Notes under the pieces: generated by a model
The model's database searches: none
What the model saw: only the letters and a program-made list of their open reading frames with translations
What the model was told of the DNA's origin: nothing
From: an uncultured Eubacteriales bacterium
GTDB taxonomy: Bacteria > Actinomycetota > Coriobacteriia > Anaerosomatales > JAAXUF01
Length of the DNA stretch: 64,000 nt
Assembly (NCBI GenBank): GCA_964388455.1
Contig: CAYMAN010000005.1
Location: forward strand, 2,920-66,919
Direction of reading: 5' to 3'
Translations under genes and position numbers: made by a program
In this document: positions 33,419-59,852 of the stretch, piece after piece
How the letters are laid out: every line of letters starts with the position of its first letter
Position numbering within the stretch: the stretch's first letter is position 1

Positions 33419-33442
33419 CAGGCTACCCGTCCCCGGTTGCTG

Positions 33443-34336: not shown

Positions 34337-34339
34337 ATG

Positions 34340-34442: not shown

Positions 34443-34484
34443 TGGCCGCGCGGGTGCGCGACGGATTCCAGCATAGCGCACGAC

Positions 34485-34518: not shown

Positions 34519-34526
34519 AGTAGTGA

Positions 34527-34733
34527 CTATTCCTTGCCGAGAAGTACGTGGTCGGCCTTGATGATCGCAACGACTTCGTCGCCGACCGCGATGCCCATCT
34601 CTTTGACTGCGTCGACCGTGATAACGGACGTGATCATCTGACCACCGACATCCATCTTTACGAGCGCCTCTACGGCGCCTTCGCGGACTTCGGTGACCGT
34701 TCCCTTCAGTTGGTTGCGCGCGCTGAGCTTCAT
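34527..34733 (-). CDS. mop: Mop/TOBE molybdate-tungstate binding protein (molbindin)
   Basis: 68 aa, MKLSARNQLKGTVTEV...GQMITSVITVDAVKEMGIAVGDEVVAIIKADHVLL. Confidence 0.85.
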   Translation of the reverse strand: MKLSARNQLKGTVTEVREGAVEALVKMDVGGQMITSVITVDAVKEMGIAVGDEVVAIIKADHVLLGKE

Positions 34734-34849
34734 GACAAACCACCTTCCGACGAGTTAGCGGATTCTGCGGGCGCGTCGCAAGGCGCGCCTCACACATGAT
34801 TCATGCCCGCAAGTCGCACTCGTGAACCCGGCGGCGCAACTCGTCGGCT

Positions 34850-35740
34850 CTACGCAAGCCGCTCGCGCAGAAACGCCGAGAACGCCTCGGCTGCGTGGGT
34901 CGGCGTGCCCTTGGGGAGCACGGCGAAGTAGGTACGAATCGCCGGCGGCGTCGCGAGGTCCACGCGCGCGACCGTCCCTAGCGCAAGCGCCTTACCAGCG
35001 ACGTGCGACGAGAGCATCGCGACGCCCAGACCACCCTCGATCGCCGAGACAATCGCCTCACCGGTGCCGAGCTCCACCGCGACACGGAGCTCAGCGGGAT
35101 CGAGTCCGTTCTCGGCCAGGAAGCTCTCGCTGATCTGACGCGTGCCGGAACCGGACTCTCTTGTGACCCAGTTCGCGTCGGCGAGATCGGCCAGCGGCGC
35201 GGCTTTGCGCGTGGCAAGCGGTGAGGACGGCGGGCAGATGACGACCAGTTCGTCGGTGCCGAGTGGAGTGAAGTTGACCTTCGCACCCTTGACGATCGCG
35301 CCGGTCACGCCGAAGTTCGCGCGACCGTTCTCGACGGCCTCGACGACTTCGGTCGTGTCGTGAACGGTGATCGTGACTCCGACCTGCGGGTTCTCGGCGA
35401 GGAAGGGGCCGAGGAGGCGGGGAATCACGTAGACGCCGGGGGTCGTGCTCGCGGCGATGACGAGGCGACCGGTCACGGCTCCGGACAGCGCGGCTATCCC
35501 CTCGCGGGCGCATTCGAGCTCGGCGAGCACCTTGCGCGCGTAAGGCAGCAGCACGCGACCGGCCTCGGTGAGGTCGATGCGGCGGTAGCGACGATCAAGA
35601 AGCGTCGCGCCGGCGTCGGCCTCGAGCGCCTGGACCTGCATGGTGACCGCCGGTTGCGAGATCCCCATCTGGCGTGCCGCCTCCGAGAAGGAGCCGGCGT
35701 CGACGACAGTCACAAACGTACGCAGCTGTGGGATGTTCAT
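34850..35740 (-). CDS. LysR-family transcriptional regulator
   Basis: N-terminal wHTH MNIPQLRTFVTVVDAGSFSEAARQMGISQPAVTMQVQALE, followed by a substrate-binding domain. Confidence 0.9.
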   Translation of the reverse strand: MNIPQLRTFVTVVDAGSFSEAARQMGISQPAVTMQVQALEADAGATLLDRRYRRIDLTEAGRVLLPYARKVLAELECAREGIAALSGAVTGRLVIAASTTPGVYVIPRLLGPFLAENPQVGVTITVHDTTEVVEAVENGRANFGVTGAIVKGAKVNFTPLGTDELVVICPPSSPLATRKAAPLADLADANWVTRESGSGTRQISESFLAENGLDPAELRVAVELGTGEAIVSAIEGGLGVAMLSSHVAGKALALGTVARVDLATPPAIRTYFAVLPKGTPTHAAEAFSAFLRERLA

Positions 35741-35877
35741 AAGGTTCCCGTCAAGCGTGGTTGGCTGTCACTCGAGTCTAGCGCATAAGCGTGCGTTATA
35801 GCTTCCGTTGGGTATACTCTGGGGGCTAGATGCGAACGATTCTCATGTAGTGCACCCGAAATCTTGGAAGGAGACCT

Positions 35878-36327
35878 GTGGCTCCACGTGTCCCGCAGTC
35901 TGCGGAGCCCGGTCGAGACGCGTCGCCGTACGGCGGCGGCCGCGTGACCCCCCAGCGCCGACTGGTTGCCGCGGTGGCCGGCGCATGGTCCGGCGCTTTC
36001 ACTGTGGACGAGCTCGCAGCCGCGGTACGGACCCGCGACCGTGCCGCGAGCGTCGCCACCGTGTATCGCAGCGTCGCCGCGCTGGCCGAGAACGGCTGGC
36101 TGGAGCGCGTCGGCGAGCGCGACGGTGCCGCGCTCTTCACGCGCTGTGCCGCCGGCGCCCACCATCACCATCACGTGGTGTGCGACGGCTGCGGCCGCGT
36201 CGAAGTCGCGGAGTGTCCCGTGAAGCCCGCGGTCTCGGCGAATGTAGCTGGCGGGTTCGTCATCACGCGCCACGAGGTCACGCTGTACGGCCTCTGCCCC
36301 GCGTGCGCCAACGGGACGGTGAGCTAG
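35878..36327 (+). CDS. Fur-family metalloregulator (possibly Ni-responsive)
   Basis: wHTH region ...ASVATVYRSVAALAENGWL. Metal sites HHHHHVVCDGCG and CPAC. GTG start with SD GGAAGGAG. Stop and start are contiguous with the downstream ECF transporter (TAGATG). Confidence 0.75.
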   Translation: MAPRVPQSAEPGRDASPYGGGRVTPQRRLVAAVAGAWSGAFTVDELAAAVRTRDRAASVATVYRSVAALAENGWLERVGERDGAALFTRCAAGAHHHHHVVCDGCGRVEVAECPVKPAVSANVAGGFVITRHEVTLYGLCPACANGTVS

Positions 36328-37128
36328 ATGTCGCACATCCACATCCCGGACGGCGTGCTGCCGCTGTGGCTCGTGGCGCTGGGTTGGCTCGTAACCACGG
36401 TGATCGTCGGCCTGGCCGTGCGTCACGGCTCGCGCGCAGACCTCGGGCGTCGCGTACCGCTGCTCGGCGCCATCGGCGCACTTATGCTGGTGGCGATGTC
36501 GAGCGAGCTCATCCCGATCGCCTATCACGTCAACCTCACGGTGGTCGCCGGCATCCTGCTGGGGCCCTCGCTGTCGGTCGTCGCTGCCGCGATCGTGGTG
36601 ACGCTGCTGGCGTTACTCGGCCATGGCGGGGTCACGGTGATCGGCCTCAACGTGATGGTCATCGCCGCCGAGATGGTCGTGGGATGCCTGCTCTTTCGTG
36701 GCCTGCTGCGTCTTATGGGTCGCCCGCGCGCGTCGTGGGCCGCCGGTGTGGCGACCGTCGTCACACTTGCGCTGACCTCCACGATGCTGGTCGGGATAGT
36801 GTGGCTCGGGGGTGCGGGGGCGGCGACACGCGAGAGCGGCGCGCTCGACCCGTCGACGCTGCGGTTCGAGAGCCCTCTCGCGGGCGGCATCTTCACCAAC
36901 GCCATCGTCGCGCCCGAGACCGAACCAGAGGTCCCGGATGCGCCTCTCTCGGTCGCCCGGTTCGCGCTGATGGTTTACGCGCTGGGGTCCATCGGTTGGG
37001 TGCTGGAGGCAATGATCACCGGCGCGATCGTGGGTTACACCGCCAAGATCCGGCCGTCGCTGGTGTTCGAAGGCGCGACGCGCACCGCAGCCTCTCCCCC
37101 ACCGGGCGATGAGGGGCTGAGCGCCTGA
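36328..37128 (+). CDS. ECF transporter substrate-capture subunit, CbiM/NikM family (Ni or Co)
   Basis: The N-terminus MSHIHIPDGVLP resembles the CbiM/NikM MHIPDG metal-binding N-terminus. Multi-TM protein. Confidence 0.75.
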   Translation: MSHIHIPDGVLPLWLVALGWLVTTVIVGLAVRHGSRADLGRRVPLLGAIGALMLVAMSSELIPIAYHVNLTVVAGILLGPSLSVVAAAIVVTLLALLGHGGVTVIGLNVMVIAAEMVVGCLLFRGLLRLMGRPRASWAAGVATVVTLALTSTMLVGIVWLGGAGAATRESGALDPSTLRFESPLAGGIFTNAIVAPETEPEVPDAPLSVARFALMVYALGSIGWVLEAMITGAIVGYTAKIRPSLVFEGATRTAASPPPGDEGLSA

Positions 37129-37949
37129 TGCGGATCGCAGACGTCGATACGATAGCGGTGCTGGGCGACTCGTCGCTGCACCGCATCGGGGCGCCCACCA
37201 AGCTCGTCGCGTTCGCGTTGGTGCTCTCGGCGGTACTGGTAACCACCAACGTGCTTCTCATCCTGGCGCTCGCACTCGCTCTGATCGCGGTGGTGGTGGG
37301 GCAGCGACTGCCGGCGCGCACGCTGCTGGGCTTCGCGGCGTATCCGGCGCTGTTCGCGGCGCTGTTCGCTTTGGCGACGACCGCGGGGATGCTCGGCGTG
37401 GCGCTGGTGGTTGGTAAGGCGCTGTGCGCGGCGCTCGCTGCGGTGCTGCTGACATTCACGACGCCATACCCCTACATCTTCGCCCCTATTCAGCGTGGGC
37501 TGCCAGCGCTTCTCGGCGATGCGGCGCTGATGACGTATCGCTCACTGTTCCTGCTGCTGGACCGCATGGACAAGACGCTGACTTCGGTGCGGCTGCGAGC
37601 TGGTCGACCGCGGTCGTTCGCCGCGGGAGCGCGGATGGTGACGACTGCGCTGGGCGGTACGCTCTTCTACTCGATCGACCTGTCGCAGCGCACCTATGAC
37701 GTGATGCGACTCCGAGGCTACGAAGGCCGCCTCGCAGTCGCCCCCCAGCCGAGGGGTCCGCTGGTGACGCGCGTGGCGACCGTGGCAATCGCTGCGGGGC
37801 TGCTCGGCGTGTCGGTGCTGTGGCGTGTGGAGTGGGCGCGACTTAACCCGATATCGTGGCTGCCTCCGCTGCTCGCGGCGCTGGTTCTGCTCGGCGCTGT
37901 TGCTGCCCGCGTGACCCGAACCATCCGTAGCCGGAAGGAACGCTCATGA
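37128..37949 (+). CDS. ECF transporter T component (CbiQ/NikQ-like)
   Basis: Hydrophobic protein between the M and O components, with overlapping start and stop. Contains the MRLRGY region typical of the Ala-Arg-Gly-type coupling helices. Confidence 0.7.
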   Translation: MRIADVDTIAVLGDSSLHRIGAPTKLVAFALVLSAVLVTTNVLLILALALALIAVVVGQRLPARTLLGFAAYPALFAALFALATTAGMLGVALVVGKALCAALAAVLLTFTTPYPYIFAPIQRGLPALLGDAALMTYRSLFLLLDRMDKTLTSVRLRAGRPRSFAAGARMVTTALGGTLFYSIDLSQRTYDVMRLRGYEGRLAVAPQPRGPLVTRVATVAIAAGLLGVSVLWRVEWARLNPISWLPPLLAALVLLGAVAARVTRTIRSRKERS

Positions 37950-38842
37950 GCACCACCTGCGATCCCGTGCACACGCATCTCGCGTCTGAGCCGTGCCCCG
38001 ATGACGTCGTGCGCGTCAGCTGCGTGCGCCACGCCTACGAGGACGGCACGCGCGTCGATCTGTGCGGCATGGACTTTGTGGCGCACCGCGGTGCGCGGGT
38101 GGCATTGCTGGGACCCAACGGCTCGGGCAAGACCACCCTGCTCTACCACATCCTCGGCCTGCTCAAGGCGCAGGAGGGCCACGTCAGCGTCTTCGGCCTC
38201 GACCCGGCGACACAGTGGCGCGAGATCCGGGCACGTGTGGGAGTGGTGCTCCAGAACGTCGACGAGCAGATCATCATGCCGACCGTCGCCGACGACGTCG
38301 CGTTCTCGCCGCGCCAGTACGGCCTGCCCGAGGACGAGGTAACCCGCCAAGTGGACCGCGCGCTTGACCTGCTCGGCATCGCCGAACTCGCCGGTCGCGT
38401 GCCGCACCACCTGTCGGGAGGGCAGAAGCGCAAGGTCGCGCTGGCGGGGGCGCTGGTGATGGAGCCGGAACTGCTGGTGCTCGATGAGCCGTTCGAGGGG
38501 CTCGACCCTGCAGCGCGCGGGGCGCTGGTGGAGCTCATCGGCCGGTTGGCGCGTGAGCAGCAGGTGACTGTGGTGATGACGACGCACGACATCGACTCGG
38601 TGTCGGAGCTCGCGGACTTCGCCTACGTGCTGGCCCCGGGCGGCGAGATCGTGCTGCGAGGGACGCCGGCCGAGGTGTTCGCGAACGTGGACGCCATCGC
38701 TGCGAGCAACATCAGGCCGCCGCTGTTGGCGGAGCTGTTCGCGGCGCTGGCCGCCGAGTCGGGCGATGCGCCGGCGCCGGAACTCGATGTCGCGGCTGCA
38801 ACTTCCGCGTTGCTACGCTGGCGGGACGAGACGAGCCGTTAG
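37946..38842 (+). CDS. ECF transporter ATPase (CbiO/NikO-like)
   Basis: Walker A GPNGSGKTT, signature LSGGQKRKVALAGAL, Walker B LVLDEPFEGLD. Confidence 0.85.
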   Translation: MSTTCDPVHTHLASEPCPDDVVRVSCVRHAYEDGTRVDLCGMDFVAHRGARVALLGPNGSGKTTLLYHILGLLKAQEGHVSVFGLDPATQWREIRARVGVVLQNVDEQIIMPTVADDVAFSPRQYGLPEDEVTRQVDRALDLLGIAELAGRVPHHLSGGQKRKVALAGALVMEPELLVLDEPFEGLDPAARGALVELIGRLAREQQVTVVMTTHDIDSVSELADFAYVLAPGGEIVLRGTPAEVFANVDAIAASNIRPPLLAELFAALAAESGDAPAPELDVAAATSALLRWRDETSR

Positions 38843-43137: not shown

Positions 43138-46100
43138 CTAGGGGTTCAGCAGACTTCTGAAGCTCGTCTCCTGGGCGATCGGCACGACTGCGGTGCCACC
43201 GATGACCCAACCTTGGTCGATCTTAGCCTTGTGCGTGGTGATGAACGTCTTGGACGTGGACTGGATGCCGGCCGACGACTCGGTGAACAGCATGATGCCG
43301 CCCATGCGTCCGAGGAATGCGCCGCCGGTCAGCGCGTCGGGGAGCTTGGAGGCAAGCGCCGTGTCCGCGCGGCTCGTCCAGGTGCGGTCGACGGCGACGA
43401 ACTTGGCGATCTGCGTCGCCGCCGTGAAACGGTTCGAACTCGTGGTCATGCGCGTGGCGCCCGCCGCGGGTACCGACCCGATGTAGGTGGCCGAGGAGGC
43501 CGCATAGCGTGGCTTACCCTTGAGTGCTGCGGACTTGAGCACGTTGCCCACCGACGTTGGGACGCCGCCCTTCTTGACCGAGAGCATCGGCATCGTCTGT
43601 GCGTAGGCGACCGGGGAAGCTGCCAGCGCGTCGTAGAAGGCCGAAGGGTTGTCGCCTGCGATCAGGATGACACCGTTGACGGCGGCTGCTCCCTTGACGC
43701 TTACCATGCGGGTCGCCATGAGGGCAGAGGTCTCGTAGCGGTCACGACCGGCGAAGCGGTCCTTGACCTGACTCACGCCCGGGATCCGCTTGATGTCGTT
43801 CCAGCGCGCGTCAGGCACGACCGCCGTGCCACCGACGATGTGGATCCTCACACCGGGGTTCTTCTTGGCGATTTCGGTGATGGCGGTCTTGGTGGCGCCG
43901 GGGACCTTGCCGACCTGCACGGTGAGGACCGGCGCGTCGTAGACGCCTGCGAGTCCGGCAGCTGAGAGCGGGTCTGACTCTTTGCCCGGCTCACCGTTGG
44001 CGACGATGATGTGCTTCACGCCACTCCAGGCCAGCTTGCCCGTGGGATCCCAGCCCTTACGAGCGAGCGCTGCGGCGGTACCGTAGCGGTCGGAGCCGTA
44101 GGCCCTGGTCACGGGACGTACGGTGCGCGCGAAAGTGGCGCCTATGGTGTGGCTCGCGGTCACGTTGGAGAACGTCACGCTCGAACTCGCACCGATGGAG
44201 ATGCCGTCCTTGGTGACGTTCACGATGTGGTACCCGGCGGCAGGTGTGACCGTGAACGTTCGACTCGACCCGTGCGCGACCGTCTGGGGGCTTCCGGGAG
44301 AGATGGTGCCATTGGCGCCGGCAGTCGGCGTGATGGCGTAGGTGTTGATAGCGAAGGTGGCACCGATGGTGTGGTTGGCTGTCACGTCGGCGAAGGTCAC
44401 AGACTGGCTGGTGCCGATCGAGACCCCATCCTTGGTGACGCCGACGATGTGATAGCCGACATTCGGAGTCACTGTGAACGTCTTGTCGGTGCCGTAGCCG
44501 ACAGTCTGTACCCCGCTGGGCGATATCACACCGTTGGCGCCGGCAGTGGGGGTGATGGTGAACGTATCGATAGCGAAGGTGGCACCGATGGTGTGGTCAG
44601 CGTTCACATCGGCGAAGGTCACCGACTGACTGGTGCCGATCGAGACCCCATCCTTGGTGACGTCGACAATGTGATAGCCGACGTCCGGAGTCACGGTGAA
44701 CGTCTTGTCGTTGCCACCGGAGACAAGCTGTACGGTTCCCGGATTGATCGATCCGTGGGGACCGACCATCGGTGTGATGGCATGAGTGCCGACCGCGTTC
44801 TGGGCGAATGTGGCACTGAGTGTGTGACCCCCCGTGACGTTGTAGAAGGTAACGACCGAGACGGCGCCGACCGAGACACCATCTTTCAACACGTCGGCGA
44901 TGTGATAGCCAGGCGCAGCCGTCACCGTGAAGGTCTTATCGGATCCGTGAACCACCGTCTGCGCGCCGCTGGGCGAGATGGCACCGTTGGGGCCGGCAGA
45001 TGGGGTGATGGTGTAGGTGTTAATAGCAAACGTGGCAGCGAGTGTATGGTTTGCGGCCACATTGGTGAATGTCACCGACTCGCTAGCCCCTATCGAGACA
45101 CCGTCCTTCTTCACGTCGGCGATATGGTAGCCGGTGGCGGGGATGACGGTGAACGTCTTGTCGGCTCCGTTCTCTACCGTCTGAGCGGCACCGGGCGAGA
45201 TGGCACCGTTGGGGCCTGCAGACGGGGTGATGGTGTATGTCTTGACGACGAATGGTGAGCTGTTCGTGGACTGCCCCACTGCGTCTGTCGCACGGGCAGT
45301 GACGGTGTACGTGTGCGAACCGACCTCGGTCGGGTCCGGAGCCCACGCCCAGCCCCACGTGTCCCACCCATTGCTTGTCGTAGCCGCATTCCAGTACTGA
45401 GCGGTGACCCAGCCGACTCCAGCCCTCCAATACTTGCCGTCGTCACGCAGGATCGAGACGCCGACCGATGTCACGCCCGCACCTACATCCGAGGAGGTGC
45501 CGGCGACGATTCTAGTGGTGGCGGATGGCGAGTCGTACTCCACCGGTGTGGTCAACGTCACCTTGGGAGGCGTCGCCGTTGTCCAGGTCCACGTCGCGCC
45601 GCCGTCGTTGGTGCGGCCGATGGTCTCGTTGTCTCCCACGACGATCCACTTGGTGGCGGTGATCATGGATATCGAGCGAAGTCTCCCGGCAACCCCACCA
45701 TCCTTGAAGCTCCAAGACGCACCACCGTTCGTGCTTATCTGGAGCGAGCCGGTGCCTAGATTGGTGCGGCCAACGGCAACTATGAGCGAGGTTCCAAACG
45801 AATCGATCCCGTACAGGGTTTCAGGTCTGATCGCCGGAGTTGGAGCCTGCGCATATGTCGACCAGGCTGTCCCGTTGGTTGTCTGGAGCACTGTACGCCC
45901 CGCGCCACCCACAGCGAACGCGTGTGTTGGGTCAGTCACGACAATGTCATTGAATGCGCTGCTCAACGTGGCAGGTGCATTCTGAGAGCTCCACGATGCA
46001 CCGCCGTTTGAGGTTTTGTAGATCAGTACGCGCTTGAAAGCAGCGGTACTGTAGAGCGGACTGGTCCACTCGGATCCGATGGCCCAGCCGGTCAGTCCGT

Positions 46101-46680
46101 CGGGCGCGAAAGCGATTGCATCCATATGAGCCCATGTTGCAGGCCCCGGGGTGTAATCGCCTGATATCGGATCGGTGGTCCCAGGATAGATAGGCCCGCG
46201 GAATCGCTCGGTCCAGCCAGAGATGCCGTTCGCGCTGGTGTAGATGATGCCGACATCTCCGTCAGCGGTGCCTTGGCGCTTGCCCACCGCCACATACCCG
46301 GTCGAGCTCTTGACGACAGCTGAGAAGCTCGCGCCACCACCTACAACCGGTGCGTTTCGAGACCAGGTCGCCCCGGCATCGCCGGTCGACAGCACGAGGT
46401 CGTCGGTATCGCTCACGGCTCGAGCCGTCGAGGTCCCGTTCATGGCAAGCCCTATCGGCGAGCTCTGCCCGGTCAGGATCGCGTGCCACGTCGCACCACC
46501 GTCGTTGGTGGTCGACATGAAGCCGCTGCGTGGGTTGTTGCCATACCATCCGCCAAGATATCCGCGATTCGCGTCGGCGAAATCGACGGTTCCAAGATAA
46601 GAAGCCCCAAACGCCGGGACCGCCGAGAACACAAAGATGAAGGCCGCTACAGCCAGAAGGATTCTGCGAGTCGATCGCAT
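43138..46680 (-). CDS. Large secreted cell-wall-anchored protein: Asp-box/BNR (Ycf48/sortilin-like) beta-propeller, five ~75-aa Ig-like repeats, three CWB2-type cell-wall-binding repeats
   Basis: Signal RRILLAVAAFIFVFSAVPAFG. Asp-box-like motifs TNDGGATW, TGDAGATWS, SNGGASWS, TNGGASWS, TNDGGATWT. Repeats have the form TYTITPSAGPNGAISP...GYHIADV.KDGVS.G...VTF.NV...HT..ATFA. The C-terminus has RYGTAAALA/RYETSALMA/RFTAATQIA modules. ATG 46680 with SD AAAGGTGG. Confidence 0.75.
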   Translation of the reverse strand: MRSTRRILLAVAAFIFVFSAVPAFGASYLGTVDFADANRGYLGGWYGNNPRSGFMSTTNDGGATWHAILTGQSSPIGLAMNGTSTARAVSDTDDLVLSTGDAGATWSRNAPVVGGGASFSAVVKSSTGYVAVGKRQGTADGDVGIIYTSANGISGWTERFRGPIYPGTTDPISGDYTPGPATWAHMDAIAFAPDGLTGWAIGSEWTSPLYSTAAFKRVLIYKTSNGGASWSSQNAPATLSSAFNDIVVTDPTHAFAVGGAGRTVLQTTNGTAWSTYAQAPTPAIRPETLYGIDSFGTSLIVAVGRTNLGTGSLQISTNGGASWSFKDGGVAGRLRSISMITATKWIVVGDNETIGRTNDGGATWTWTTATPPKVTLTTPVEYDSPSATTRIVAGTSSDVGAGVTSVGVSILRDDGKYWRAGVGWVTAQYWNAATTSNGWDTWGWAWAPDPTEVGSHTYTVTARATDAVGQSTNSSPFVVKTYTITPSAGPNGAISPGAAQTVENGADKTFTVIPATGYHIADVKKDGVSIGASESVTFTNVAANHTLAATFAINTYTITPSAGPNGAISPSGAQTVVHGSDKTFTVTAAPGYHIADVLKDGVSVGAVSVVTFYNVTGGHTLSATFAQNAVGTHAITPMVGPHGSINPGTVQLVSGGNDKTFTVTPDVGYHIVDVTKDGVSIGTSQSVTFADVNADHTIGATFAIDTFTITPTAGANGVISPSGVQTVGYGTDKTFTVTPNVGYHIVGVTKDGVSIGTSQSVTFADVTANHTIGATFAINTYAITPTAGANGTISPGSPQTVAHGSSRTFTVTPAAGYHIVNVTKDGISIGASSSVTFSNVTASHTIGATFARTVRPVTRAYGSDRYGTAAALARKGWDPTGKLAWSGVKHIIVANGEPGKESDPLSAAGLAGVYDAPVLTVQVGKVPGATKTAITEIAKKNPGVRIHIVGGTAVVPDARWNDIKRIPGVSQVKDRFAGRDRYETSALMATRMVSVKGAAAVNGVILIAGDNPSAFYDALAASPVAYAQTMPMLSVKKGGVPTSVGNVLKSAALKGKPRYAASSATYIGSVPAAGATRMTTSSNRFTAATQIAKFVAVDRTWTSRADTALASKLPDALTGGAFLGRMGGIMLFTESSAGIQSTSKTFITTHKAKIDQGWVIGGTAVVPIAQETSFRSLLNP
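44122..45240 (-). repeat. Five tandem coding repeats (~222-231 bp each) within the surface protein
   Basis: Protein-level repeats of 74-77 aa. Repeats 3 and 4 share long identical stretches (KDGVSIGTSQSVTFADV). Confidence 0.8.
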
Positions 46681-46838
46681 GCACAACCACCTTTACCCGT
46701 GACGCTTCACGAAGACCTCACCGCGGCCGTTGTCCGGCGTCCGCGCTGGGATTCGATTCTATCACCGTTCAGGCGCGTGGCCTTCTCGGCGGGGATTGAC
46801 CTGCAACCTTCGTGCCGCGGTGACGTGGCGGCGATCGA

Positions 46839-50456: not shown

Positions 50457-50553
50457 TGGCGGAAGCGTGTGCGAATCGAACACACCCGGGAGGCTCTTCA
50501 CCCCCCACACTGGTTTTGAAGACCAGGGGCCCCACCAGGAACCATCCGCCTCC
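50457..50553 (-). tRNA. selC: tRNA-Sec (anticodon UCA), 97 nt with encoded CCA
   Basis: Minus-strand sequence: GGAGGCGGAUGGUUCCUGGUGGGGCCCCUGGUCUUCAAAACCAGUGUGGGGGGUGAAGAGCCUCCCGGGUGUGUUCGAUUCGCACACGCUUCCGCCA. It has a 6-bp D-stem with a 4-nt loop, an anticodon loop CUUCAAA, a long variable arm (6-bp stem), a T-arm GUGUG-UUCGAUU-CGCAC, and a 7-8 bp acceptor. An upstream TTGACA-17-GACAAT promoter lies at 50563-50591 and a downstream hairpin at 50419-50439. Confidence 0.85.
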
Positions 50554-50711
50554 ATCTGGGGCATTGTCCCGACGCGGATAGGCCCTGTCAAACGCCGGCT
50601 GACTGATGTCGCCGTATGAGGATGTTCTCATCACGCTCTCATGCGCCCTTCACGACCGTTGTCGATTCTAGGTATAGGCACTTCTCCCGCACCCGGCAGA
50701 CAGGCGAGACG

Positions 50712-52205
50712 ATGGCGCAGGCAAAGGCGTGGATCGCGAGGAATCGGTTCTTCGCGATCTTGGGCGGCCTGGCACTGGCGATGGTCCTCGGCGCCGCGTT
50801 CGTCGGTGTGGCCGGCGCGACCAGCTCGCCTTCCTTCTGTCGCGCCGCGTGTCATGAGATGAGGCCGTACCACGACGCTTGGGCCACCGGCCCACACAAA
50901 GGCATCTCCTGTATCGAGTGTCACGTCGATCCCGGTGCCGTCGCTCAGCTCAAACACAAGGTGGTCGCCCTCGGCGAAGTCGCCACCCACTTTCGCGGCG
51001 ACACGTCGTTCCCACGCGAGGTGCAGGCCGAGGTTCCCAGTGAACGATGCGTCCGTTGCCACTCCAAGATCTCGATCGTCAGCACCGGGTTCGATCATGC
51101 CGTCCACGCCAGGCGCGGCCCCTGTACGCAGTGCCATGCGGATGCAGGCCACAAGGTCACCATCACCGCGCTGAAGGCTGCCGGCTACTACAGCGGGTTC
51201 ACAGGCACCGGCGCGTCAGCCGAGAGCACCACCGCGATCGTCGATCGTGGCCGGGCCGACCTTCCCGGCCACGTGAGCATCTCGTGCTCGCGCTGCCACG
51301 TGATGTCGGCAAACACGTGCTCGGGATGCCATAAACCCAAGCACCCCGCCCGCGGCGAATGCGGCACCTGTCACGCGACAGGCGCGGAGTTCATCTTCAC
51401 GCACCCCGTTGACCGACCCGACTGCAAGTCCTGCCACACTCCCAAGCCCACGCACACGAAGTCTTCTTCCCCGACGACCCGGTGCGTGACCTGTCACAAG
51501 CAGCCGGGCGTCAAGTGGTCGTTCACGCACCCTTCGAAGACCTCCGATTGTGAGTCGTGCCACGCCCGTCCCGCCAAGCACCGCGCCGGTACCTGCACTC
51601 AGTGTCACGCGGCCGGCGGCAGCTGGAAGTTCAAGCATCCCGCCGCAAAGTCAGACTGCCAGTCCTGCCACAACAGGCCGTCCGGCCACAGATCCGGCTC
51701 GTGCACGACGTGCCACTCCGTCGGCTCCTCTTGGGCATTCAGGCACCCGAGCAACGGTTCCTCCTGCGCGACATGTCACAACCGCCCGTCCGGTCACCGC
51801 TCAGGTTCGTGCACCTCGTGTCACTCGACCGGCTCTCGATGGAGCTTCAGGCACCCTGGCAACGGCGTATCGTGCTCGTCATGTCACAACCGTCCCTCTG
51901 GTCACAAGTCCGGATCGTGCAGCACGTGTCACTCCGTCGGCAAGCGCTGGACCTTCAGGCACGGATCATCGAGCAAGTGTTCCTCGTGCCACCGGGCACC
52001 GTCGAAGCACTACGGCACAAGCTGCTCACGCTGCCACTCGCCGAGCAGATCGTGGAAGAGCGCATCGTTCCGTCACCCAGGCATACCGGGCGGAGAGCAC
52101 CGCTACACCTCGTTCTCCTGTGTGAAGTGCCACCCCGGTGACGGTCGCGGCCCTGGTCACTACTGCAGCTGCCACGGCAACACGTCTGGTCCCGACGACG
52201 ATTAG
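50712..52205 (+). CDS. Membrane-anchored NapC/NirT/NrfH-like cytochrome fused to a long tandem di-heme repeat region (about 20 heme sites)
   Basis: TM FFAILGGLALAMVLGAAFVGVAG. NapC-like FCRAACHEM (one residue longer than the canonical FCxSCHEM), then CIECH, CVRCH and CTQCH, followed by 16 further CxxCH motifs. ATG 50712 is preferred over the track start 50616. Confidence 0.8.
   Translation: MAQAKAWIARNRFFAILGGLALAMVLGAAFVGVAGATSSPSFCRAACHEMRPYHDAWATGPHKGISCIECHVDPGAVAQLKHKVVALGEVATHFRGDTSFPREVQAEVPSERCVRCHSKISIVSTGFDHAVHARRGPCTQCHADAGHKVTITALKAAGYYSGFTGTGASAESTTAIVDRGRADLPGHVSISCSRCHVMSANTCSGCHKPKHPARGECGTCHATGAEFIFTHPVDRPDCKSCHTPKPTHTKSSSPTTRCVTCHKQPGVKWSFTHPSKTSDCESCHARPAKHRAGTCTQCHAAGGSWKFKHPAAKSDCQSCHNRPSGHRSGSCTTCHSVGSSWAFRHPSNGSSCATCHNRPSGHRSGSCTSCHSTGSRWSFRHPGNGVSCSSCHNRPSGHKSGSCSTCHSVGKRWTFRHGSSSKCSSCHRAPSKHYGTSCSRCHSPSRSWKSASFRHPGIPGGEHRYTSFSCVKCHPGDGRGPGHYCSCHGNTSGPDDD
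51516..52055 (+). repeat. Five tandem 108-bp (36-aa) coding repeats, each with two CxxCH
   Basis: Unit W.F.HP....C.SCH.RPS.H.SGSC..CHS.G.., repeated from aa 301 to ~480 in track numbering. More degenerate copies lie upstream. Confidence 0.8.
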
Positions 52206-52332: not shown

Positions 52333-52866
52333 TTGAGTGAAAGCGATACAGCAGTGAACAGAGTACTTCGCACAGCACTCGTATCCGCATCCGTTCTCCT
52401 GTCGGGAACGGTCGCTTTCGCCGTTGCGGCCGCCATCGCCCCTCCCGGTGTCGACGGCGTCGACGTGGTCGTCACCAATCGGCCGGTCCTGTCCTTAGCT
52501 GCAGCCGCGACGCCACGTCCCGCGACCACGACCTTTGCCACAGCCACGCCAGTGGACCGCTCTGAGAAGCGGGCGGGAACGACCATGACTGCCCCGCGGA
52601 GCAAGACCGTCGTCACCGGTGGCGATTCTGGGACTCGGCCCATCGGCGCTGTAGCTCCTACCGTAAAGCCCAGACCGCCGGTCAGCACGGTCGTCGAAAC
52701 CGAATCCGACCGCGAGGTCGTGACTCCGCCGGTTCGAGATGATGACCATGACGAACCGGACGACGACGATGATGATGAGCGCCCGAGCGACTCGTCCCCT
52801 TCAGTCGATACCGAGAACGAGGCGCGAGAGGACATCTCGCGCCCGTCCGGCACCAAGGGGGACTGA
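52333..52866 (+). CDS. Single-TM protein with Pro/Thr-rich and strongly acidic C-terminal regions, unknown function
   Basis: TM ALVSASVLLSGTVAFAVAAAIA; acidic tail DDDHDEPDDDDDDE. TTG start, so the exact start is uncertain. It lies immediately upstream of the response regulator. Confidence 0.4.
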   Translation: MSESDTAVNRVLRTALVSASVLLSGTVAFAVAAAIAPPGVDGVDVVVTNRPVLSLAAAATPRPATTTFATATPVDRSEKRAGTTMTAPRSKTVVTGGDSGTRPIGAVAPTVKPRPPVSTVVETESDREVVTPPVRDDDHDEPDDDDDDERPSDSSPSVDTENEAREDISRPSGTKGD

Positions 52867-52868: not shown

Positions 52869-53537
52869 GTGCGTATCCTGGTCGTCGAAGACGAGGACTC
52901 GATCGCCTCGTTCGTGGTGAAAGGTCTCTCGGCGGAGGGACACACGGTCGAGCGCGCCGACACGGCCGCAGAAGGTGCAGCGCTCGGGATGACCTACGAT
53001 TTCGACCTGGTGCTGCTCGACCTCATGCTTCCCGACGGCAGCGGCATGGACGTTCTCAGGCGCATCCGTACCGAGAAGCCCGAACTACCGATCATCGTCG
53101 TCAGCGCGCTGGGTGAGATCGACGATAAGGTCAACCTGCTCGATGCCGGCGCAGACGACTACCTCGTCAAGCCGTTCGCATTCGCCGAGCTGGCCGCACG
53201 CGTGCGAGCAGCCGGAAGACAGGGCGCGGCCTCATCGCACACCTTGTGCGTCGGAGATCTGATGCTGGACACGAGAACTCGGGTTGCCAAGCGCGGCGAC
53301 GACATCGCAGCAGACCTGCCCAGCAGGGAGTTCGCACTGCTCGAGTACCTCATGCGCCATGCCGGCCACATACTCACTCGCCAGCAGCTGCTCGACGCTG
53401 TGTGGGGGATCGGCTTCGATGCCGGCAGTAACGTCGTGGACGTCTACGTCAGCTACCTGCGGCGCAAGCTCGATCGCACGAGCGAGGCCTCGGTGATCGA
53501 GACCGTACGCGGCGCGGGATACCGTGTCCGAGCGTAA
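52869..53537 (+). CDS. OmpR-family response regulator
   Basis: Receiver domain MRILVVEDEDSIA...DLVLLDLMLPDGSG..., plus a winged-helix domain ...REFALLEYLMRHAGHILTRQQLLDAVWG...VRGAGYRV. Confidence 0.9.
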   Translation: MRILVVEDEDSIASFVVKGLSAEGHTVERADTAAEGAALGMTYDFDLVLLDLMLPDGSGMDVLRRIRTEKPELPIIVVSALGEIDDKVNLLDAGADDYLVKPFAFAELAARVRAAGRQGAASSHTLCVGDLMLDTRTRVAKRGDDIAADLPSREFALLEYLMRHAGHILTRQQLLDAVWGIGFDAGSNVVDVYVSYLRRKLDRTSEASVIETVRGAGYRVRA

Positions 53538-54936
53538 GCGGAAGTTCCTCTCGGCAAGCGGACGCGTCGTCGCTGCGATGACCACGCTCTTGGCTGTGGC
53601 CGTGATCGCGTTGTGTGTGCTCGCCTACTTCATCACCCTGCGAAATCTGTCCGCCGACGTCGACCGAGCGCTTGCACGCGAGGCGTCCGCGTACTCCGCC
53701 GCGGTGCGCAGCGCACCCGCAAGTGAGGCTCTGGTCACGGCCACACGCGAGTATCTGCAGGGTCGCGAGACGGCCACGTCCGGCTTCAGCCCGGTGCTGC
53801 TCCTATCGTTGGAGAGCGGACGCGTGATCTCCAACTCCACACTCAAACTCGAGGCTGCGGCGGGCAACCTCGCACTCGTCACCCCTGTCGCCTCGCCCGG
53901 GTACGTCACCGTCACGCTAGGCGACGCCGAGTACCGCACACTCTCCGTACCGGTACTGAGCAGCAGCGGGGTCCGGCTCGGCACGTTTCAGGTCGCACTT
54001 TCCGCCGAGACGCCGCGAACCGTCGCTGCCGGCGTTGCGGCGTCGCTTGGTGCGGCGGGCTTCGTCGTATTGCTGCTGGGGGCGCTCGTCTCGGTCTGGG
54101 CGGCTCGCGGCGCACTGGCACCGCTCACGCAGATGGCGAGCGACGCAACTGCGATCACGCTTGCCAAGCCCGGCAACGGTATCGCGTACAACGGACCCCG
54201 GGACGAGCTGGGCACGCTTGCCGAGGCGCTCAACGCCATGCTGGAGCGGCTCGAGCGCGCCTACGACGATCAGCGGCGTTTCGTTGCCGATGCCAGTCAT
54301 GAGCTGCGCACACCGGTCGCGATCGTACGCGGCAACATCGAACTGCTTCGCAGCGGTCACAGCACCGAGCGGGACGCAGAGGAATCACTCGCCATGATCG
54401 AGGCCGAAGCGATACGCATGAGCAAGCTGCTCGATGAGCTGCTCTCGCTCGCTCGTCTCGAAGGCGCTTCTCGACCGTTTCAGCCTCTCGAAGTGCGCAC
54501 GTTACTCGAAGAAGTCGCCGCACGAGCCCACACGCTCGGCAATCGCGACATCACGCTCGACGGGCCGTGCGGGCTGTGGATCGAAGGCGACCCCGACCTG
54601 CTCGATCAGGCGCTGGTGAACCTCATGCGCAACGCCATCGCGCACACTCGGGACGGCGGCTCGATCGTACTGGCTTGCCGGGCGGTGTCCTCGGCGATCC
54701 GCATCACCATCACAGACGATGGACCAGGTGTCCCCGAGGCCGATCTTGGCCGCATCTTTGATCGCTTCTACCGCGCGCCAGGTAAGCGTCCGGCGCGTGG
54801 CGGCGGAGCGGGGCTCGGACTGGCGATCTCCAAGCGTCTCATCGAGATCCACGGCGGCACGCTCCACGCCGAGAACGCGCAGCCCACCGGCGCACGCTTC
54901 ATCATCGAGCTTCCCGTGATCGACGAGCCGACGTAG
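53524..54936 (+). CDS. Sensor histidine kinase (two TM, HAMP, HisKA, HATPase_c)
   Basis: H-box FVADASHELRTP, N-box LMRNAIAHT, G-boxes DDGPGV and GGAGLGLAI. Confidence 0.9.
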   Translation: MSERKRKFLSASGRVVAAMTTLLAVAVIALCVLAYFITLRNLSADVDRALAREASAYSAAVRSAPASEALVTATREYLQGRETATSGFSPVLLLSLESGRVISNSTLKLEAAAGNLALVTPVASPGYVTVTLGDAEYRTLSVPVLSSSGVRLGTFQVALSAETPRTVAAGVAASLGAAGFVVLLLGALVSVWAARGALAPLTQMASDATAITLAKPGNGIAYNGPRDELGTLAEALNAMLERLERAYDDQRRFVADASHELRTPVAIVRGNIELLRSGHSTERDAEESLAMIEAEAIRMSKLLDELLSLARLEGASRPFQPLEVRTLLEEVAARAHTLGNRDITLDGPCGLWIEGDPDLLDQALVNLMRNAIAHTRDGGSIVLACRAVSSAIRITITDDGPGVPEADLGRIFDRFYRAPGKRPARGGGAGLGLAISKRLIEIHGGTLHAENAQPTGARFIIELPVIDEPT

Positions 54937-54949: not shown

Positions 54950-56860
<1,911 letters not shown>

Positions 56861-56867
56861 CCTGGCG

Positions 56868-58268
56868 CTACGCTCCCAGAATCTCGCCGAGACGCGCGAC
56901 GACCGTGTCCGACTCGTCGGCACACAGCAGCGTGCGGGGGTCGATGAGGAGACGACCGTCCTTCACGCGCGCGATGATCGCCGGCTCCGCGCCGAGGCGC
57001 AGTCGCGACTCGAGATCTCCGACGCTCAGCGCGGCGGGTGCAACCGTCACGACGACGGTCGGGATCTCGGCCAGCGGCAGCGATCCGCCGCCGGCGCGCG
57101 CGATGTCGTCTACGCACTCGACCGTCGCCGCGCTTCCCACCGTCTCGCGAATGCGTGCGGCGAGCGCCTCGGCACGTACACGGACGTCGGCCTGAGGCTC
57201 GGTCAGCATTCGCAGCGTGGGGATGTCTTTGAGCGCGCGCTCCTCGTCGAGGTATGCACGCAACGTGGCCTCAAGCGCGGCGAGCGTCATCTTATCGAGC
57301 CGCACCGCACGCGCCATGGGGTGCTTCTTGAGCCTGGCGATGATCTCCCACCGGCCAACCAGGATGCCTGCCTGCGGTCCGCCCAGCAGCTTGTCGCCCG
57401 ACGCCGATACCAGGTCCGCCCCGGCCGCGATCGACGCGCCCACCGTAGGCTCATCGGGCAGGCCGTACTTCGCGAGGTCCACGAGCACACCCGAGCCCTG
57501 GTCCTCGAACACCGGCACACCCTGCGATGCGCCAAGCTTCACGAGGTCGGCAAGCGAGACCTCCTCGGTGAATCCGACCACGCGGTAGTTGCTCGAGTGA
57601 ACCTTGAGCAGCAGCCCCGTGTTCGCCGTCATCGCGCGTTCATAGTCCGAGAGGTGCGTCTTGTTGGTGGCGCCGATCTCGACCATCGTCGCGCCGGACT
57701 CGCGCATGATGTCCGGGATGCGGAAGCTCCCGCCGATCTCGACGAGCTGACCGCGCGACACGATCGCTTCCTTGCCGCGCGACAATGCCGCGATGCCGAG
57801 CATGACGGCTGCGGCGTTGTTGTTGACGGCCATCGCCGCCTCGGCGCCGGTGAGTCGACACAGCAGCGACTCCACATGCGCATGACGGCTGCCGCGCTCA
57901 CCGCTGTCGACGTCGTACTCCAGCGTCGAGTAGCTGGCGGCTACCTCCTGAACGGCGGCCGCGGCCTTCTCGGAGAGCACGCTGCGGCCGAGGTTGGTGT
58001 GCACGATGATGCCGGTGGCGTTGATGACCCGGCGCAGTGACGGCCGAGCAGCGAGTGCCGCGCGCGTCACGGCCTCGAGGGCGACGCTCGAAGCAGCGGG
58101 CTCGAACACCTCGCCGGCGAGCAGCCGTGCTCTGGCATCCTCGATCGCGCCGCGCACCGCGTCGAGAACGATCGCTCGTGGGTATACCGCCAGCGCGTCG
58201 GACAGCTCGGGCGTCGCAAGGACGTCGTCGGTCTTGGGAAGCGTTCGGAGTAGCGCATTAGTATCCAT
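56868..58268 (-). CDS. selA: L-seryl-tRNA(Sec) selenium transferase SelA
   Basis: LLRTLPKTDDVL N-terminus, INATGIIVHTNLGRS, and PLP-Lys context SGDKLLGGPQAG. The start is ATG 58268; ATG 58316 and the track start 58343 are alternatives. Confidence 0.85.
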   Translation of the reverse strand: MDTNALLRTLPKTDDVLATPELSDALAVYPRAIVLDAVRGAIEDARARLLAGEVFEPAASSVALEAVTRAALAARPSLRRVINATGIIVHTNLGRSVLSEKAAAAVQEVAASYSTLEYDVDSGERGSRHAHVESLLCRLTGAEAAMAVNNNAAAVMLGIAALSRGKEAIVSRGQLVEIGGSFRIPDIMRESGATMVEIGATNKTHLSDYERAMTANTGLLLKVHSSNYRVVGFTEEVSLADLVKLGASQGVPVFEDQGSGVLVDLAKYGLPDEPTVGASIAAGADLVSASGDKLLGGPQAGILVGRWEIIARLKKHPMARAVRLDKMTLAALEATLRAYLDEERALKDIPTLRMLTEPQADVRVRAEALAARIRETVGSAATVECVDDIARAGGGSLPLAEIPTVVVTVAPAALSVGDLESRLRLGAEPAIIARVKDGRLLIDPRTLLCADESDTVVARLGEILGA

Positions 58269-58342
58269 AGCTGGGATTCTACCCGACCCGTGCGCCGCGT
58301 GATGCAGCGACGGCATTTCCGTCGTGTATGACTCGTTAGCCA

Positions 58343-58678
58343 TCAGCCGACGGTCAGCACGTCATCTGCCATAAGCGCTGCCACTGCATCCGCCATGATT
58401 CCGACCTCACCGATCGCCAACCGATCCTTCAGGCCCAGGTAGTCGAGGCAGGTGCCGCACGCCTTGATCGGCACACCCTTCTCAGCGAGCAGTGTCAGAT
58501 CGTCGAGCGAGGTCGATCCTTCGCATGCGAGGAGCACGCCGGCGTTCATCAGCGTCACGGCGACCGGTGTCTCGGCGTTCCGTGCGAGCGTGTAGAGGAA
58601 GTTCCTCATGAGAACCGTACCAAGCTCATCGTCGCCATGCCCGATGCGATCGGAGGTGATGAAGACTCGTTTGGACAT
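58343..58678 (-). CDS. DsrE-like selenium-metabolism protein (C-terminal-half YedF-like)
   Basis: MSKRVFITSDRIGHGDDELGTVLMRNFLYTL...MNAGVLL...LAEKGVPIKACGTCLDYLGL. ATG 58678 with SD GAGGAG. It lies between selD and selA. Confidence 0.7.
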   Translation of the reverse strand: MSKRVFITSDRIGHGDDELGTVLMRNFLYTLARNAETPVAVTLMNAGVLLACEGSTSLDDLTLLAEKGVPIKACGTCLDYLGLKDRLAIGEVGIMADAVAALMADDVLTVG

Positions 58679-58811: not shown

Positions 58812-59852
58812 CTAGCGGACGACGATGCGCCCGGGAGTGTCAGCGATGCAGCGACCTATGCGCGCACCCAGCACTCCACGCGCGGCGAGTTCCGCCGCCA
58901 GGCGATCAGCGTCCTCAGTGGGTACCGCGATCATGAGGCCGCCGCTGGTCTGCGGGTCGCAGAGGATCCGCATCCACGTGCCCGGCTCGGACGCTCCTGC
59001 CCACAGCACGAACTCGTCGGCCCACGCGACCACGTCGGCTGTTCGCCCCGGAACGACTCCTTGCTCGGCGAAGTCAGCGACGCGGTCGAAGAGTGGCACG
59101 GCGGCAACGTTCAGCTCGGCGCCACATCCGCTCGCTTCGACCATCTCGTGTAGGTGACCGAGAAGCCCGAATCCGGTGACGTCTGTGCACGCGCTGACGC
59201 CGACCTCCACCATCGCCTCGCACGCGAGACGGTTCAGGGCCGCCATAGCCTCGATGCAGTCGCGCGCGGTCTCCTCGTTCTCCAGACCCTGCTTCAACGC
59301 GGTCCCGATGATGCCGGTTCCGATCGGCTTGGTAAGGAATATCTCGTCGCCCGCCCGCGCGCCGCGGTTGCGAACGACCCTGTCGGGATGAACGGTACCG
59401 AACACGGAAAGCCCGAACTTGGGCTCCTTATCGTCGATGGTATGACCGCCAACAGTGACCGCGCCGGCCTCGGTGACCTTTTCGGCGCCTCCGCGGACGA
59501 CTTCGCCCACGATGTCGGCGCCCATTGAGCACGGGAACGCGAGCAGGTTCATCGCCGTCAGCGGACGGCCGCCCATCGCATAGATGTCGGAGAGCGAGTT
59601 CGCCGCGGCTATCCGCCCGAAGTCGTACGGGTCATCCACGATGGGCGTGAAGAAGTCCACGGTCAGCAACGCCGCCATGTCATCTGACAGTCGATAGACC
59701 GCGGCGTCATCGCTCGTCTCGAAGCCGAGGATGAGCGCGTCGGACTGACCGGGAGCGATCTTGTCGAGCACTGCCTGGAGGTCCGCCGGACCCCACTTCG
59801 CCGCTCAACCAGCTTTGCTTGAGAGTTGCGTAAGTCGCACGCGCTCAGTCAT
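58812..59852 (-). CDS. selD: Selenide, water dikinase SelD, itself a selenoprotein (in-frame TGA at 59805-59807)
   Basis: The track ORF starts at 59771. Upstream in the same frame: ATG 59852 (SD GGGAGGTG), then MTERVRLTQLSSKAG-U-AAKWGPADLQAVLDKI..., which matches the SelD N-terminal LTQxSxxxG(C/U)xxK motif. A candidate hairpin lies at 59778-59794. Confidence 0.85.

Follow-up and report, generated by a model that had tools for sequence, protein, structure and literature searches.

We analyzed a 64-kb stretch of DNA from an uncultured bacterium of the Coriobacteriia (order Anaerosomatales), hereafter called the window, and all coordinates are given relative to window position 1. The gene under study encodes a multiheme c-type cytochrome and is located at 50712..52205 on the plus strand. 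Its open reading frame (ORF) was listed as 50616..52205, and translation from the ATG at 50712 gives a protein of 497 amino acids (aa) followed by a TAG stop codon. Gene calling on a public contig that had been assembled independently (run SRR13723396) gave the identical 497-aa protein. The ATG at 50712 is most likely the true start of the gene. The longer start at 50616 was rejected because 50616-50711 carries a conserved promoter repeat, described below, and because the independent gene call starts elsewhere and leaves the upstream start unused. The high G+C content of the window yields spurious long ORFs, such as an out-of-frame 194-aa ORF at 51557-52141 on the plus strand that overlaps the repeats of the cytochrome. 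A simple gene filter based on the G+C content of third codon positions (GC3) favored this false frame over the real cytochrome frame, which is rich in Cys, His, and Ser.

The protein contains 19 CxxCH motifs and one CX3CH motif, that is, 20 heme-type motifs in 497 aa. Composition-preserving shuffles of the same sequence contained 0.32 motifs on average and 4 at most (5,000 shuffles). The chain begins with a membrane helix and a tetraheme head, continues as an array of short di-heme repeats, and ends in a conserved cap.

A tetraheme head related to NrfH

The Lys/Arg-rich, predicted cytoplasmic N-terminus and a single transmembrane helix occupy aa 1-36 (50712..50819). A hydrophobic stretch covers aa 13-35 with Lys and Arg residues on its N-terminal side, AlphaFold placed a helix at residues 12-36, and the membrane helix of NrfH aligned to this region. 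The head itself (aa 37-160; 50820..51191) is supported by phmmer, Foldseek, the NCBIfam NrfH model, and the invariant columns of the family. In a phmmer search of all PDB sequences, residues 10-147 aligned to NrfH of Desulfovibrio vulgaris (PDB 2J7A chain C) with an E value of 7e-8. The alignment covers the membrane helix, the four heme motifs one to one and in the same order, the CHxM motif, and a pair formed by a Lys and an acidic residue. The four motifs are CRAACHEM (aa 43), CIECH (aa 67), CVRCH (aa 113), and CTQCH (aa 138). The motif of heme 1 is CX3CH (CRAACH, aa 43-48, 50838-50855) in the clade of the window protein and CxxCH in other clades. M50, K83, and E89 were invariant in a family alignment of 50 sequences. 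K83 and E89 are the counterparts of K82 and D89 of NrfH, which we take to be the lysine and the acidic residue of the quinol site in 2J7A and 2VR0.

The structural comparison was consistent with the alignment. The AlphaFold model of the full protein had a predicted local distance difference test score (pLDDT) of 69 overall and of 70-87 in the head. Foldseek with this model matched 2J7A chain C with an E value of 2.6e-4, a probability of 1.00, and a template modeling score (TM-score) of 0.60 on the target over 138 columns. NrfH chains (2J7A and 2VR0) were the only significant PDB matches of the full model. The initial annotation of this sequence had proposed a membrane-anchored tetraheme NapC/NirT/NrfH module in the first ~150 residues, and the NrfH alignment of aa 10-147 together with the fold match supports that assignment. 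The tetraheme character holds in that four motifs are aligned to those of NrfH, with the amendment that the first is CX3CH and not CxxCH.

Some public sources name homologues of the protein "cytochrome c nitrite reductase small subunit" or "NapC", and the best NCBIfam match of the window protein is the NrfH model TIGR03153. Read literally, these names would make the protein an ordinary NrfH or NapC that serves a nitrite or nitrate reductase and carries a decorative extension. However, the match to TIGR03153 reaches 54 bits against a cut-off of 134 bits, and the heme array accounts for two thirds of the protein. No gene of the NrfA (cytochrome c552), NapA, or NapB families was present within 10 kb of the cytochrome in any of the five loci inspected, and no cytochrome c552/NrfA family gene was found among the window genes scanned. 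A role as such a subunit is therefore very improbable. The head is best classed as a divergent relative of NrfH, NapC, and CymA at the superfamily level, not as a NrfH equivalog, and we infer that it would act as a quinol dehydrogenase of the NrfH/CymA type.

The 36-residue di-heme array and its variation

A Gly/Ser/Thr/Ala-rich linker (aa 161-185; 51192..51266), which is variable in the alignment and has a pLDDT below 50 at residues 165-177, separates the head from a conserved tri-heme segment (aa 186-226; 51267..51389). The latter contains CSRCH (aa 192), CSGCH (aa 203), and CGTCH (aa 217), and its Cys and His columns are invariant. It is followed by a degenerate 42-aa di-heme unit (aa 227-268; 51390..51515), the position of which is kept among close relatives. 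Four regular di-heme units then span aa 269-412 (51516..51947). They start at 51516, 51624, 51732, and 51840, each is exactly 36 aa (108 bp) long, and this stretch is the site of copy-number variation. The fifth unit (aa 413-447; 51948..52052) is 35 aa long and is a terminal variant with the sequence ...APSKHYG..., whose position is kept throughout the family. The C-terminal cap (aa 448-497; 52053..52202) reads F.HPGIPGGEH...CVKCH...CSCH...GPDDD. It was modeled with low pLDDT, and its general form, F.HP.IPGGEH...C..CH...C(x)xCH...GP.DD, is present throughout the family. The last motif, CSCH (aa 484-487; 52161-52172), is one residue short. In other clades this position holds a CxxCH, which is the 21st motif, and CSCH is kept across the whole subclade of the window protein.

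The repeat anatomy agrees in most respects with what had been proposed from the sequence at the outset. Sixteen further CxxCH motifs had been claimed after the head, and 16 were found after residue 190. The degenerate copies expected upstream of the regular units correspond to the 42-aa copy at 51390. Five units of ~36 aa had been claimed at 51516-52055; four of these are exactly 36 aa long, and the fifth is 35 aa long. One heme per ~18 residues had been estimated, and 17.9 was measured in the repeats.

The consensus of the unit is W.F.HP....C.SCH.RP.GH.SGSC..CH..G.... The four regular units are 47-72% identical to one another as protein and 57-73% identical as DNA. Because of this divergence, Tandem Repeats Finder recognized only 2.7 copies (51669-51962, period of 108, 76% matches). 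When 29 diverse two-unit segments were aligned, the two CxxCH motifs and two further His residues of each unit were all invariant. The protein has 21 conserved His residues outside the motifs for its 20-21 predicted hemes. By contrast, only 4 Met residues are present in the whole protein, with none in the repeats. For this reason, essentially all hemes should have bis-His ligation. The repeats (aa 269-447) contain 17.9 residues per heme, 1.7% Ile, Leu, Val, and Met, and a net charge of +21. At this density and with so few aliphatic residues, the hemes themselves must form the core of the predicted fold.

We also modeled the array separately (residues 180-497, 120 sequences). The model had a pLDDT of 75 and showed the same pattern of short helices and strands every 36 residues, a periodicity that the full-length model shows as well, and the tri-heme segment was its most confident part with a pLDDT of 82-90. 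A Foldseek search of the PDB with this heme-free, mostly coil model of aa 180-497 gave no match at E ≤ 10, including cytochromes c3 and c7 and the small tetraheme cytochrome (STC). At the level of sequence profiles, the whole protein matched Cytochrome_C7 (PF14522; 43.3 bits, cut-off of 24.8) and Cytochrom_c3_2 (PF14537; 39.3 bits, cut-off of 25) above their thresholds, and the repeats alone scored 26.2 and 23.9 bits, respectively. The repeats scored 20.2 bits against Paired_CXXCH_1 (PF09699), for which the cut-off is 20.6 bits, and the best stretch covered profile positions 1-16 of 41. Thus, of the two kinds of family to which the initial annotation had pointed, the c7-like one was found above threshold and Paired_CXXCH_1 fell just below it. 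A profile of two units gave only marginal matches to PDB sequences (Hmc, 1e-3; STC, 8e-3), and the score against DmsE (TIGR03508) was 24.7 bits with a cut-off of 192.2 bits. When the array was compared by BLASTP with two further multiheme cytochromes of the window, one of them positive for PF09699, only the CxxCH motifs aligned. The scores sum weak stretches, and this supports a kinship of the array with class III cytochromes at the superfamily level only.

Next, we compared the protein with its relatives. More than 740 homologues were present in a large protein collection, few of them named, either as "NapC/NirT family cytochrome c [Coriobacteriia bacterium]" or as hypothetical. A survey of one genome per species found 151 relatives. 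Among the best 80 of these 151, nearly all were titled as metagenome-assembled genomes (MAGs) of uncultured Coriobacteriia or Actinomycetota, including Anaerosomatales; some titles read "uncultured Eubacteriales", and one read Chloroflexi. The lengths of the homologous proteins cluster modulo 36. Proteins encoded at the syntenic locus have 9-31 heme motifs, and one paralogue has 35. In close relatives (62-86% identity), the edge units and the cap are fixed and the number of middle units is 3, 4, or 5. A tree of the head domains of 43 complete members requires at least 90 changes in heme number, and some proteins hold units that are 95-100% identical to one another. These two results together indicate that gain and loss of units are frequent and recent. 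Growth by tandem duplication, as the initial annotation had suggested, is thus borne out by the counts of middle units, the length spacing, and the near-identical units, and the comparison across related genomes (9-35 hemes) revealed both expansion and contraction. As judged from these comparisons, the growth and shrinkage of the array by tandem duplication and deletion is real and ongoing.

Variation of this kind raises the question of whether the repeat region is an artefact of assembly or annotation, or part of a decaying gene. Assemblers can collapse or expand repeats, and a few related loci from long-read MAGs have broken frames. Against this, the units of the window gene are only 57-73% identical as DNA and are too diverged for such an artefact, the same 497-aa protein was obtained from run SRR13723396, an orthologue with 86% identity has the same unit count, and the motif Cys and His residues are all invariant across the family. 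A separate gene for the repeats was not seen either, since a single ORF encodes the head, the array, and the cap in each of the 43 complete loci examined. We consider the probability of an artefact or a decaying gene to be close to negligible.

The array also occurs in other contexts. A search of 1.84 billion representative proteins with the five-unit region yielded no more than 465 matches at E ≤ 1e-3. In many of these proteins the NrfH head is missing, and the array stands behind a transmembrane helix, together with a DUF5667 domain or with C-terminal Fn3-like domains. Four such headless proteins (P0121, P0140, P0122, and P0130; loci L084 and L085) matched with E values down to 1e-78. One type consists of a transmembrane helix, DUF5667, and the array. 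The other consists of a transmembrane helix, the array, C-terminal Fn3-like/BiPBP_C domains, and a Pro-rich tail, and is up to 1,078 aa long with ~30 predicted hemes. The genomic context of P0122 and P0140 was uninformative. By its distribution, the di-heme unit is a rare module that occurs in several membrane-anchored architectures.

Gene neighborhood and candidate regulation

The cytochrome gene is followed on the plus strand by a gene that we call X, an OmpR-family response regulator, and a sensor kinase. X begins 148 bp after the cytochrome gene, the regulator 2 bp after X, and the kinase gene overlaps the regulator gene by 14 bp. This order is kept in ~55 species-level loci, down to 37% identity of the cytochrome, and the regulators are 65-94% identical. 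Neither a terminator nor any unusual RNA structure (z = 0.29) was found in the 148-nt gap between the cytochrome gene and X, and no terminator-like site or stable hairpin was found between any of the cassette genes.

Gene X (52354..52866) encodes an N-terminal transmembrane helix, an Ala/Pro/Thr-rich linker, a conserved motif, and an acidic tail. Its start is either the TTG at 52333 or the GTG at 52354. The motif is (D/E)(H/R)E(V/T)VxPPVRD(D/E) and is followed by an acidic, often His-containing tail, with a net charge of -17 over the last 60 aa in the window protein. No Pfam or NCBIfam family matched gene X. Proteins of this architecture lie between the cytochrome and the regulator in ~50 loci (for example, L001 8867-9361 and L002 12016-12531), and the motif is duplicated in L018, L020, and L033. 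The acidic X tail and the strongly basic heme array carry opposite charges. Some loci have an extra gene between the cytochrome and the regulator (L005 11892-12416, which is the same as L040 7595-8119; L038 7426-7977; L045 7436-8017; and L052 2718-3461). In these loci, the product is a transmembrane protein that has one CxxCH and a very long tail of acidic, Asp-rich repeats.

The response regulator (52869..53537) is of the OmpR/PhoB family with Pfam Response_reg and Trans_reg_C domains. The membrane sensor histidine kinase (53524..54936) has two transmembrane segments, an extracytoplasmic loop of ~150 aa, and Pfam HAMP, HisKA, and HATPase domains. Upstream of the cytochrome gene, an operator-like triple direct repeat, CTCAy-N6-CTCAy-N6-yTCAy, with an 11-bp period is located at 50627..50653 on the plus strand and ends 58 bp before the start codon. 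A further half-site upstream of the triple repeat forms a partial palindrome (ATGAGgatgttCTCAT). The triple repeat was the only match in the 64-kb window, and no match was found in 100 shuffles. Its position is constant, and it is present in 31 of the 52 loci that have the regulator pair and in 1 of the 13 that lack it, against a background of 0.03 per kb. An 11-bp periodicity is typical of OmpR/PhoB-type binding sites. The initial annotation had suggested that the OmpR/kinase pair may regulate the cytochrome. The conserved gene order and the distribution of the promoter repeat support this suggestion, and the regulator probably controls the cytochrome promoter via the triple repeat.

The cassette is nested in a selenocysteine locus. 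A tRNA-Sec gene with the anticodon TCA lies at 50457-50553 on the minus strand (Rfam, 72.8 bits), 159 bp upstream of the cytochrome gene and on the opposite strand; the initial annotation had not mentioned it. On the other side are selB (54950-56923), selA (56868-58343), and selD (58812-59771), all on the minus strand. The nesting between tRNA-Sec and selB/selA is kept in most related loci, and the adjacency of the cytochrome and selB is kept in 5 loci without the regulator pair. This arrangement may be a legacy of ancestral gene order, or it may be functionally tied to selenium. We rejected the possibility that the cytochrome is a selenoprotein, since its frame has neither an in-frame TGA nor read-through and the C-terminal end (GPxDD) is the same in every homologue. 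Just upstream of the tRNA-Sec gene, a promoter-like site (TTGACA, a 17-nt spacer, and GACAAT) is located at 50591-50563 on the minus strand. Its GTGTCAAAC element is conserved in related loci and stands back to back with the promoter region of the cytochrome gene; the GTGTCAAAC site is probably the selC promoter.

The same neighborhood bears on a different function for the cytochrome, namely that of a metal- or metalloid-responsive surface reductase. In this scenario the kinase would sense an external metal or metalloid, the regulator would induce the cytochrome, and its exposed low-potential hemes would reduce soluble species such as Cr(VI), U(VI), selenite, or tellurite; in a selenium version, the position in the sel locus would reflect selenium supply or detoxification. 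The best NCBIfam matches of the regulator and of the kinase are CztR/SilR/CopR and CztS/SilS/CopS, respectively, the latter over the full length of the kinase. The Asp/Glu/His-rich tail of gene X is of a cation-binding kind, and the location of the cassette in the sel locus, including the selB adjacency in the 5 loci without the pair, fits the selenium version. However, the scores (207 versus 279 bits and 198 versus 292 bits) are below the cut-offs and only slightly above those of WalK, PhoR, and BaeS, and the likeness of the sensor domain is weak. The heavy-metal likeness of the pair is therefore a weak lead. Furthermore, the cytochrome contains no selenocysteine codon or read-through, the nesting can be an inherited accident of gene order, and a paralogue in a complete genome sits elsewhere, with neither sel genes nor the regulator pair. 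We regard this function as unlikely.

Elsewhere in the window, a respiratory gene cluster occupies 1968-23522 on the minus strand. It contains a NiFe hydrogenase small subunit (1968-3341), three further multiheme cytochromes (8876-10114, 18581-20221, and 21645-22646), a 4Fe-4S subunit (10120-11010) next to a molybdopterin oxidoreductase of 1,260 aa (11024-14806), and a cytochrome b561-type protein (22659-23522). An NHL-repeat protein and two TPR proteins are also encoded there. The cluster is similar to the groups of cytochrome and molybdoenzyme genes that have been discussed in connection with Fe(III) reduction in Parvivirga. The region at 26880-38842 encodes MoaA-like and MoeA proteins, a molybdate-type ABC transporter with a TOBE domain, a LysR regulator, and a FUR-family regulator adjoining CbiM/CbiQ and an ABC ATPase. 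By their family assignments, these genes are putative supply lines for the nearby molybdoenzymes and metal centers. A secreted protein of 1,182 aa is encoded at 43138-46686 on the minus strand, 4 kb from the cytochrome gene. It has BNR/sortilin-like repeats, five InlB B-repeat-like domains, and three CWB2 wall-binding domains. This composition marks it as a wall-attached surface protein, which is consistent with a monoderm envelope.

A candidate electron conduit and its relation to known systems

We favor the reading that the cytochrome is a quinol-linked, wall-penetrating electron conduit in a monoderm Coriobacteriia cell, and assign it a probability of roughly 0.55. The N-terminal helix would anchor the protein in the cytoplasmic membrane, with the remainder outside. 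The tetraheme head would exchange electrons with the quinone pool at heme 1 via the CHxM motif and the Lys/acidic pair. Beyond the head, the same polypeptide would hold 16 (possibly 17) more bis-His hemes, which, carried by the 36-residue modules and the cap, would form a continuous cationic chain. At ~1 nm per heme, a value assumed by analogy with other linear multiheme proteins, the chain would be long enough to enter or cross the wall, extending 15-20 nm outward here and up to ~30 nm in members with 31-35 hemes. It could link the quinone pool to acceptors or donors beyond the reach of the membrane, such as Fe(III) or Mn(IV) minerals, humics, surface cytochromes, or partner cells. The positive charge would favor residence among anionic wall polymers, duplication and deletion of units would make chain length an evolvable trait, and the OmpR-type regulator would act on the promoter through the triple repeat with its 11-bp period. 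Cultured Anaerosomatales are Gram-positive with 17-18 multiheme cytochromes each, one of them is an obligate Fe(III) reducer, and cytochrome c biogenesis genes have been reported for these relatives (PMC9686372).

Several observations weigh against this reading. In the two cultured strains of Anaerosomatales, quinones were "not detected" (PMC9686372), and for this reason the quinol-linked role rests on homology and on the polyprenyl synthase and cytochrome b genes present in the window. The top NCBIfam match of the head, NrfH TIGR03153, is below threshold (54.3 bits versus a cut-off of 134.2 bits). At E ≤ 1, Pfam PF03264 did not match the window protein, although most homologues have a precomputed match to it. 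A conserved A-x-A sequence directly after the transmembrane helix is a possible signal-peptidase site, and cleavage there would release the protein from the membrane. The structural models are heme-free and of moderate confidence (pLDDT of 69 and 75, predicted TM-score of 0.33-0.37), and the chain length is taken from other cytochromes. As for regulation, the Fisher p value of 0.001 for the association of the triple repeat with the regulator pair is indicative only, because the loci are related. Conservation of the cassette could likewise be inherited gene order, as it sits in the selC-selB-selA-selD locus of the same lineages. Finally, the genes adjoining the cytochrome gene encode neither a terminal reductase nor a surface cytochrome.

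The last of these points would fit a hub or capacitor at the membrane surface, in which the head would oxidize quinol, the many low-potential hemes would store charge and feed several soluble or wall-located reductases near the membrane, such as molybdoenzymes and other cytochromes, and a wall-spanning length would not have been selected. CymA works as a hub, and GSU1996 is proposed to act as a capacitor. The evidence for the head, by NrfH sequence and by fold, is the same for the hub as for the conduit, and the window encodes other multiheme cytochromes and a molybdopterin oxidoreductase in addition to lacking a dedicated partner adjacent to the gene. Polymers of the GSU1996 type have been discussed as electron reservoirs (PMC10138318). 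On the other hand, a hub has no obvious need for 9-35 hemes in strict 36-residue steps or for a conserved distal cap. A monoderm cell also lacks an outer-membrane-bounded periplasm for soluble partners, and the extreme positive charge and the absence of a hydrophobic core would suit an extended chain in an anionic wall. The hub is possible, at perhaps one chance in a handful, but remains the less probable account, and the wall-penetrating conduit is retained as the favored one.

The conduit can be stated in a stronger form, which we put forward only tentatively. The protein would be a one-polypeptide, length-adjustable conduit across the whole wall and the densest heme scaffold yet described. 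Its 9-35 hemes would track envelope thickness or the distance to the acceptor, and its module would be a general "wire segment" of monoderm bacteria. The natural length variants at one orthologous locus make the wire idea testable, and the promoter repeat with the two-component system provides a handle on the inducing signal. If it folds as predicted, the 36-residue di-heme module would be a compact building block for protein conductors. The environmental Coriobacteriia in which the gene occurs (OPB41/Anaerosomatales and relatives) are common in the subsurface and in sediment, and the protein may thus matter for iron cycling and interspecies electron transfer.

Among known systems, the head is closest to NrfH/NapC/NirT/CymA, with which it shares the transmembrane helix, the order and spacing of the four heme sites, the CHxM motif, the Lys/acidic pair, and the fold. 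It differs from the NrfH family in the CX3CH at heme 1, in having no partner gene nearby, and in the 340 additional residues with 16-17 further predicted hemes. MtrA/DmsE resembles the proposed conduit as an elongated single-chain heme wire crossing an envelope layer; however, MtrA is sheathed by a porin and has neither a membrane anchor nor a quinol site. MtrA has ~33 residues per heme. Paired_CXXCH_1 (PF09699), a Geobacter/Shewanella-type repeat of ~41 residues, is likewise a short repeat with two CxxCH motifs, but its spacing differs from that of the unit described here, and so does the W.F.HP / RP.GH signature. STC/CctA of Shewanella (PDB 1M1P; compare the tetraheme domain of flavocytochrome c3) is 91 aa long with four hemes. 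The two-unit profile (72 aa, four hemes) aligned to it end to end with the four CxxCH in register (E = 0.008), which suggests an STC-like linear four-heme arrangement in a pair of units. This match is marginal and motif-driven, STC is a single soluble domain, and Foldseek gave no link between the two.

In Gram-positive metal reducers, such as Thermincola potens (OcwA) and Carboxydothermus ferrireducens (OmhA and Smh), multiheme cytochromes also move electrons across a thick monoderm wall (PMC7829351, PMC9686372). Export across this wall, which is tens of nm thick, has so far largely been modeled with several separate cytochromes in series and separate putative quinol oxidases. In comparison, by description, the window family is one polypeptide of variable length and offers a simpler candidate, with the putative quinol site and the wire in one chain. 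The "quinol-oxidising" multihemes of Carboxydothermus are described with CISM membrane-anchor domains (PMC7829351), and for this reason we did not equate them with the window family. The Anaerosomatales paper mentions quinol-oxidising multihemes in general terms only, with nothing relevant in its supplement (PMC9686372).

The Geobacter nanowire cytochromes GSU1996, GSU0592, and GSU2210 each carry 12-27 linearly arranged hemes on one polypeptide and are thought to have grown by domain duplication (PMC10138318, PMC11492766). They share with the window protein the concept of a linear polymer, and Cytochrome_C7/c3 families are the best Pfam matches of its array. The unit described here is a 36-aa di-heme, whereas that of GSU1996 is a triheme c7-type domain of ~75 aa. 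The hemes here appear to be all bis-His, whereas GSU1996 has one His-Met heme per domain, and there are ~18 residues per heme here against roughly 26 in GSU1996 (calculated from the published size). The Geobacter proteins are soluble and periplasmic and have no quinol-dehydrogenase head. Literature searches found no description of the NrfH-head/array family or of the 36-residue di-heme repeat. Relative to the GSU1996 polymers and to Paired_CXXCH_1, the protein thus differs, as far as its sequence can tell, in unit size, in the predicted bis-His ligation of all hemes, in heme density, and in the fusion of an array of variable length to a putative quinol dehydrogenase.

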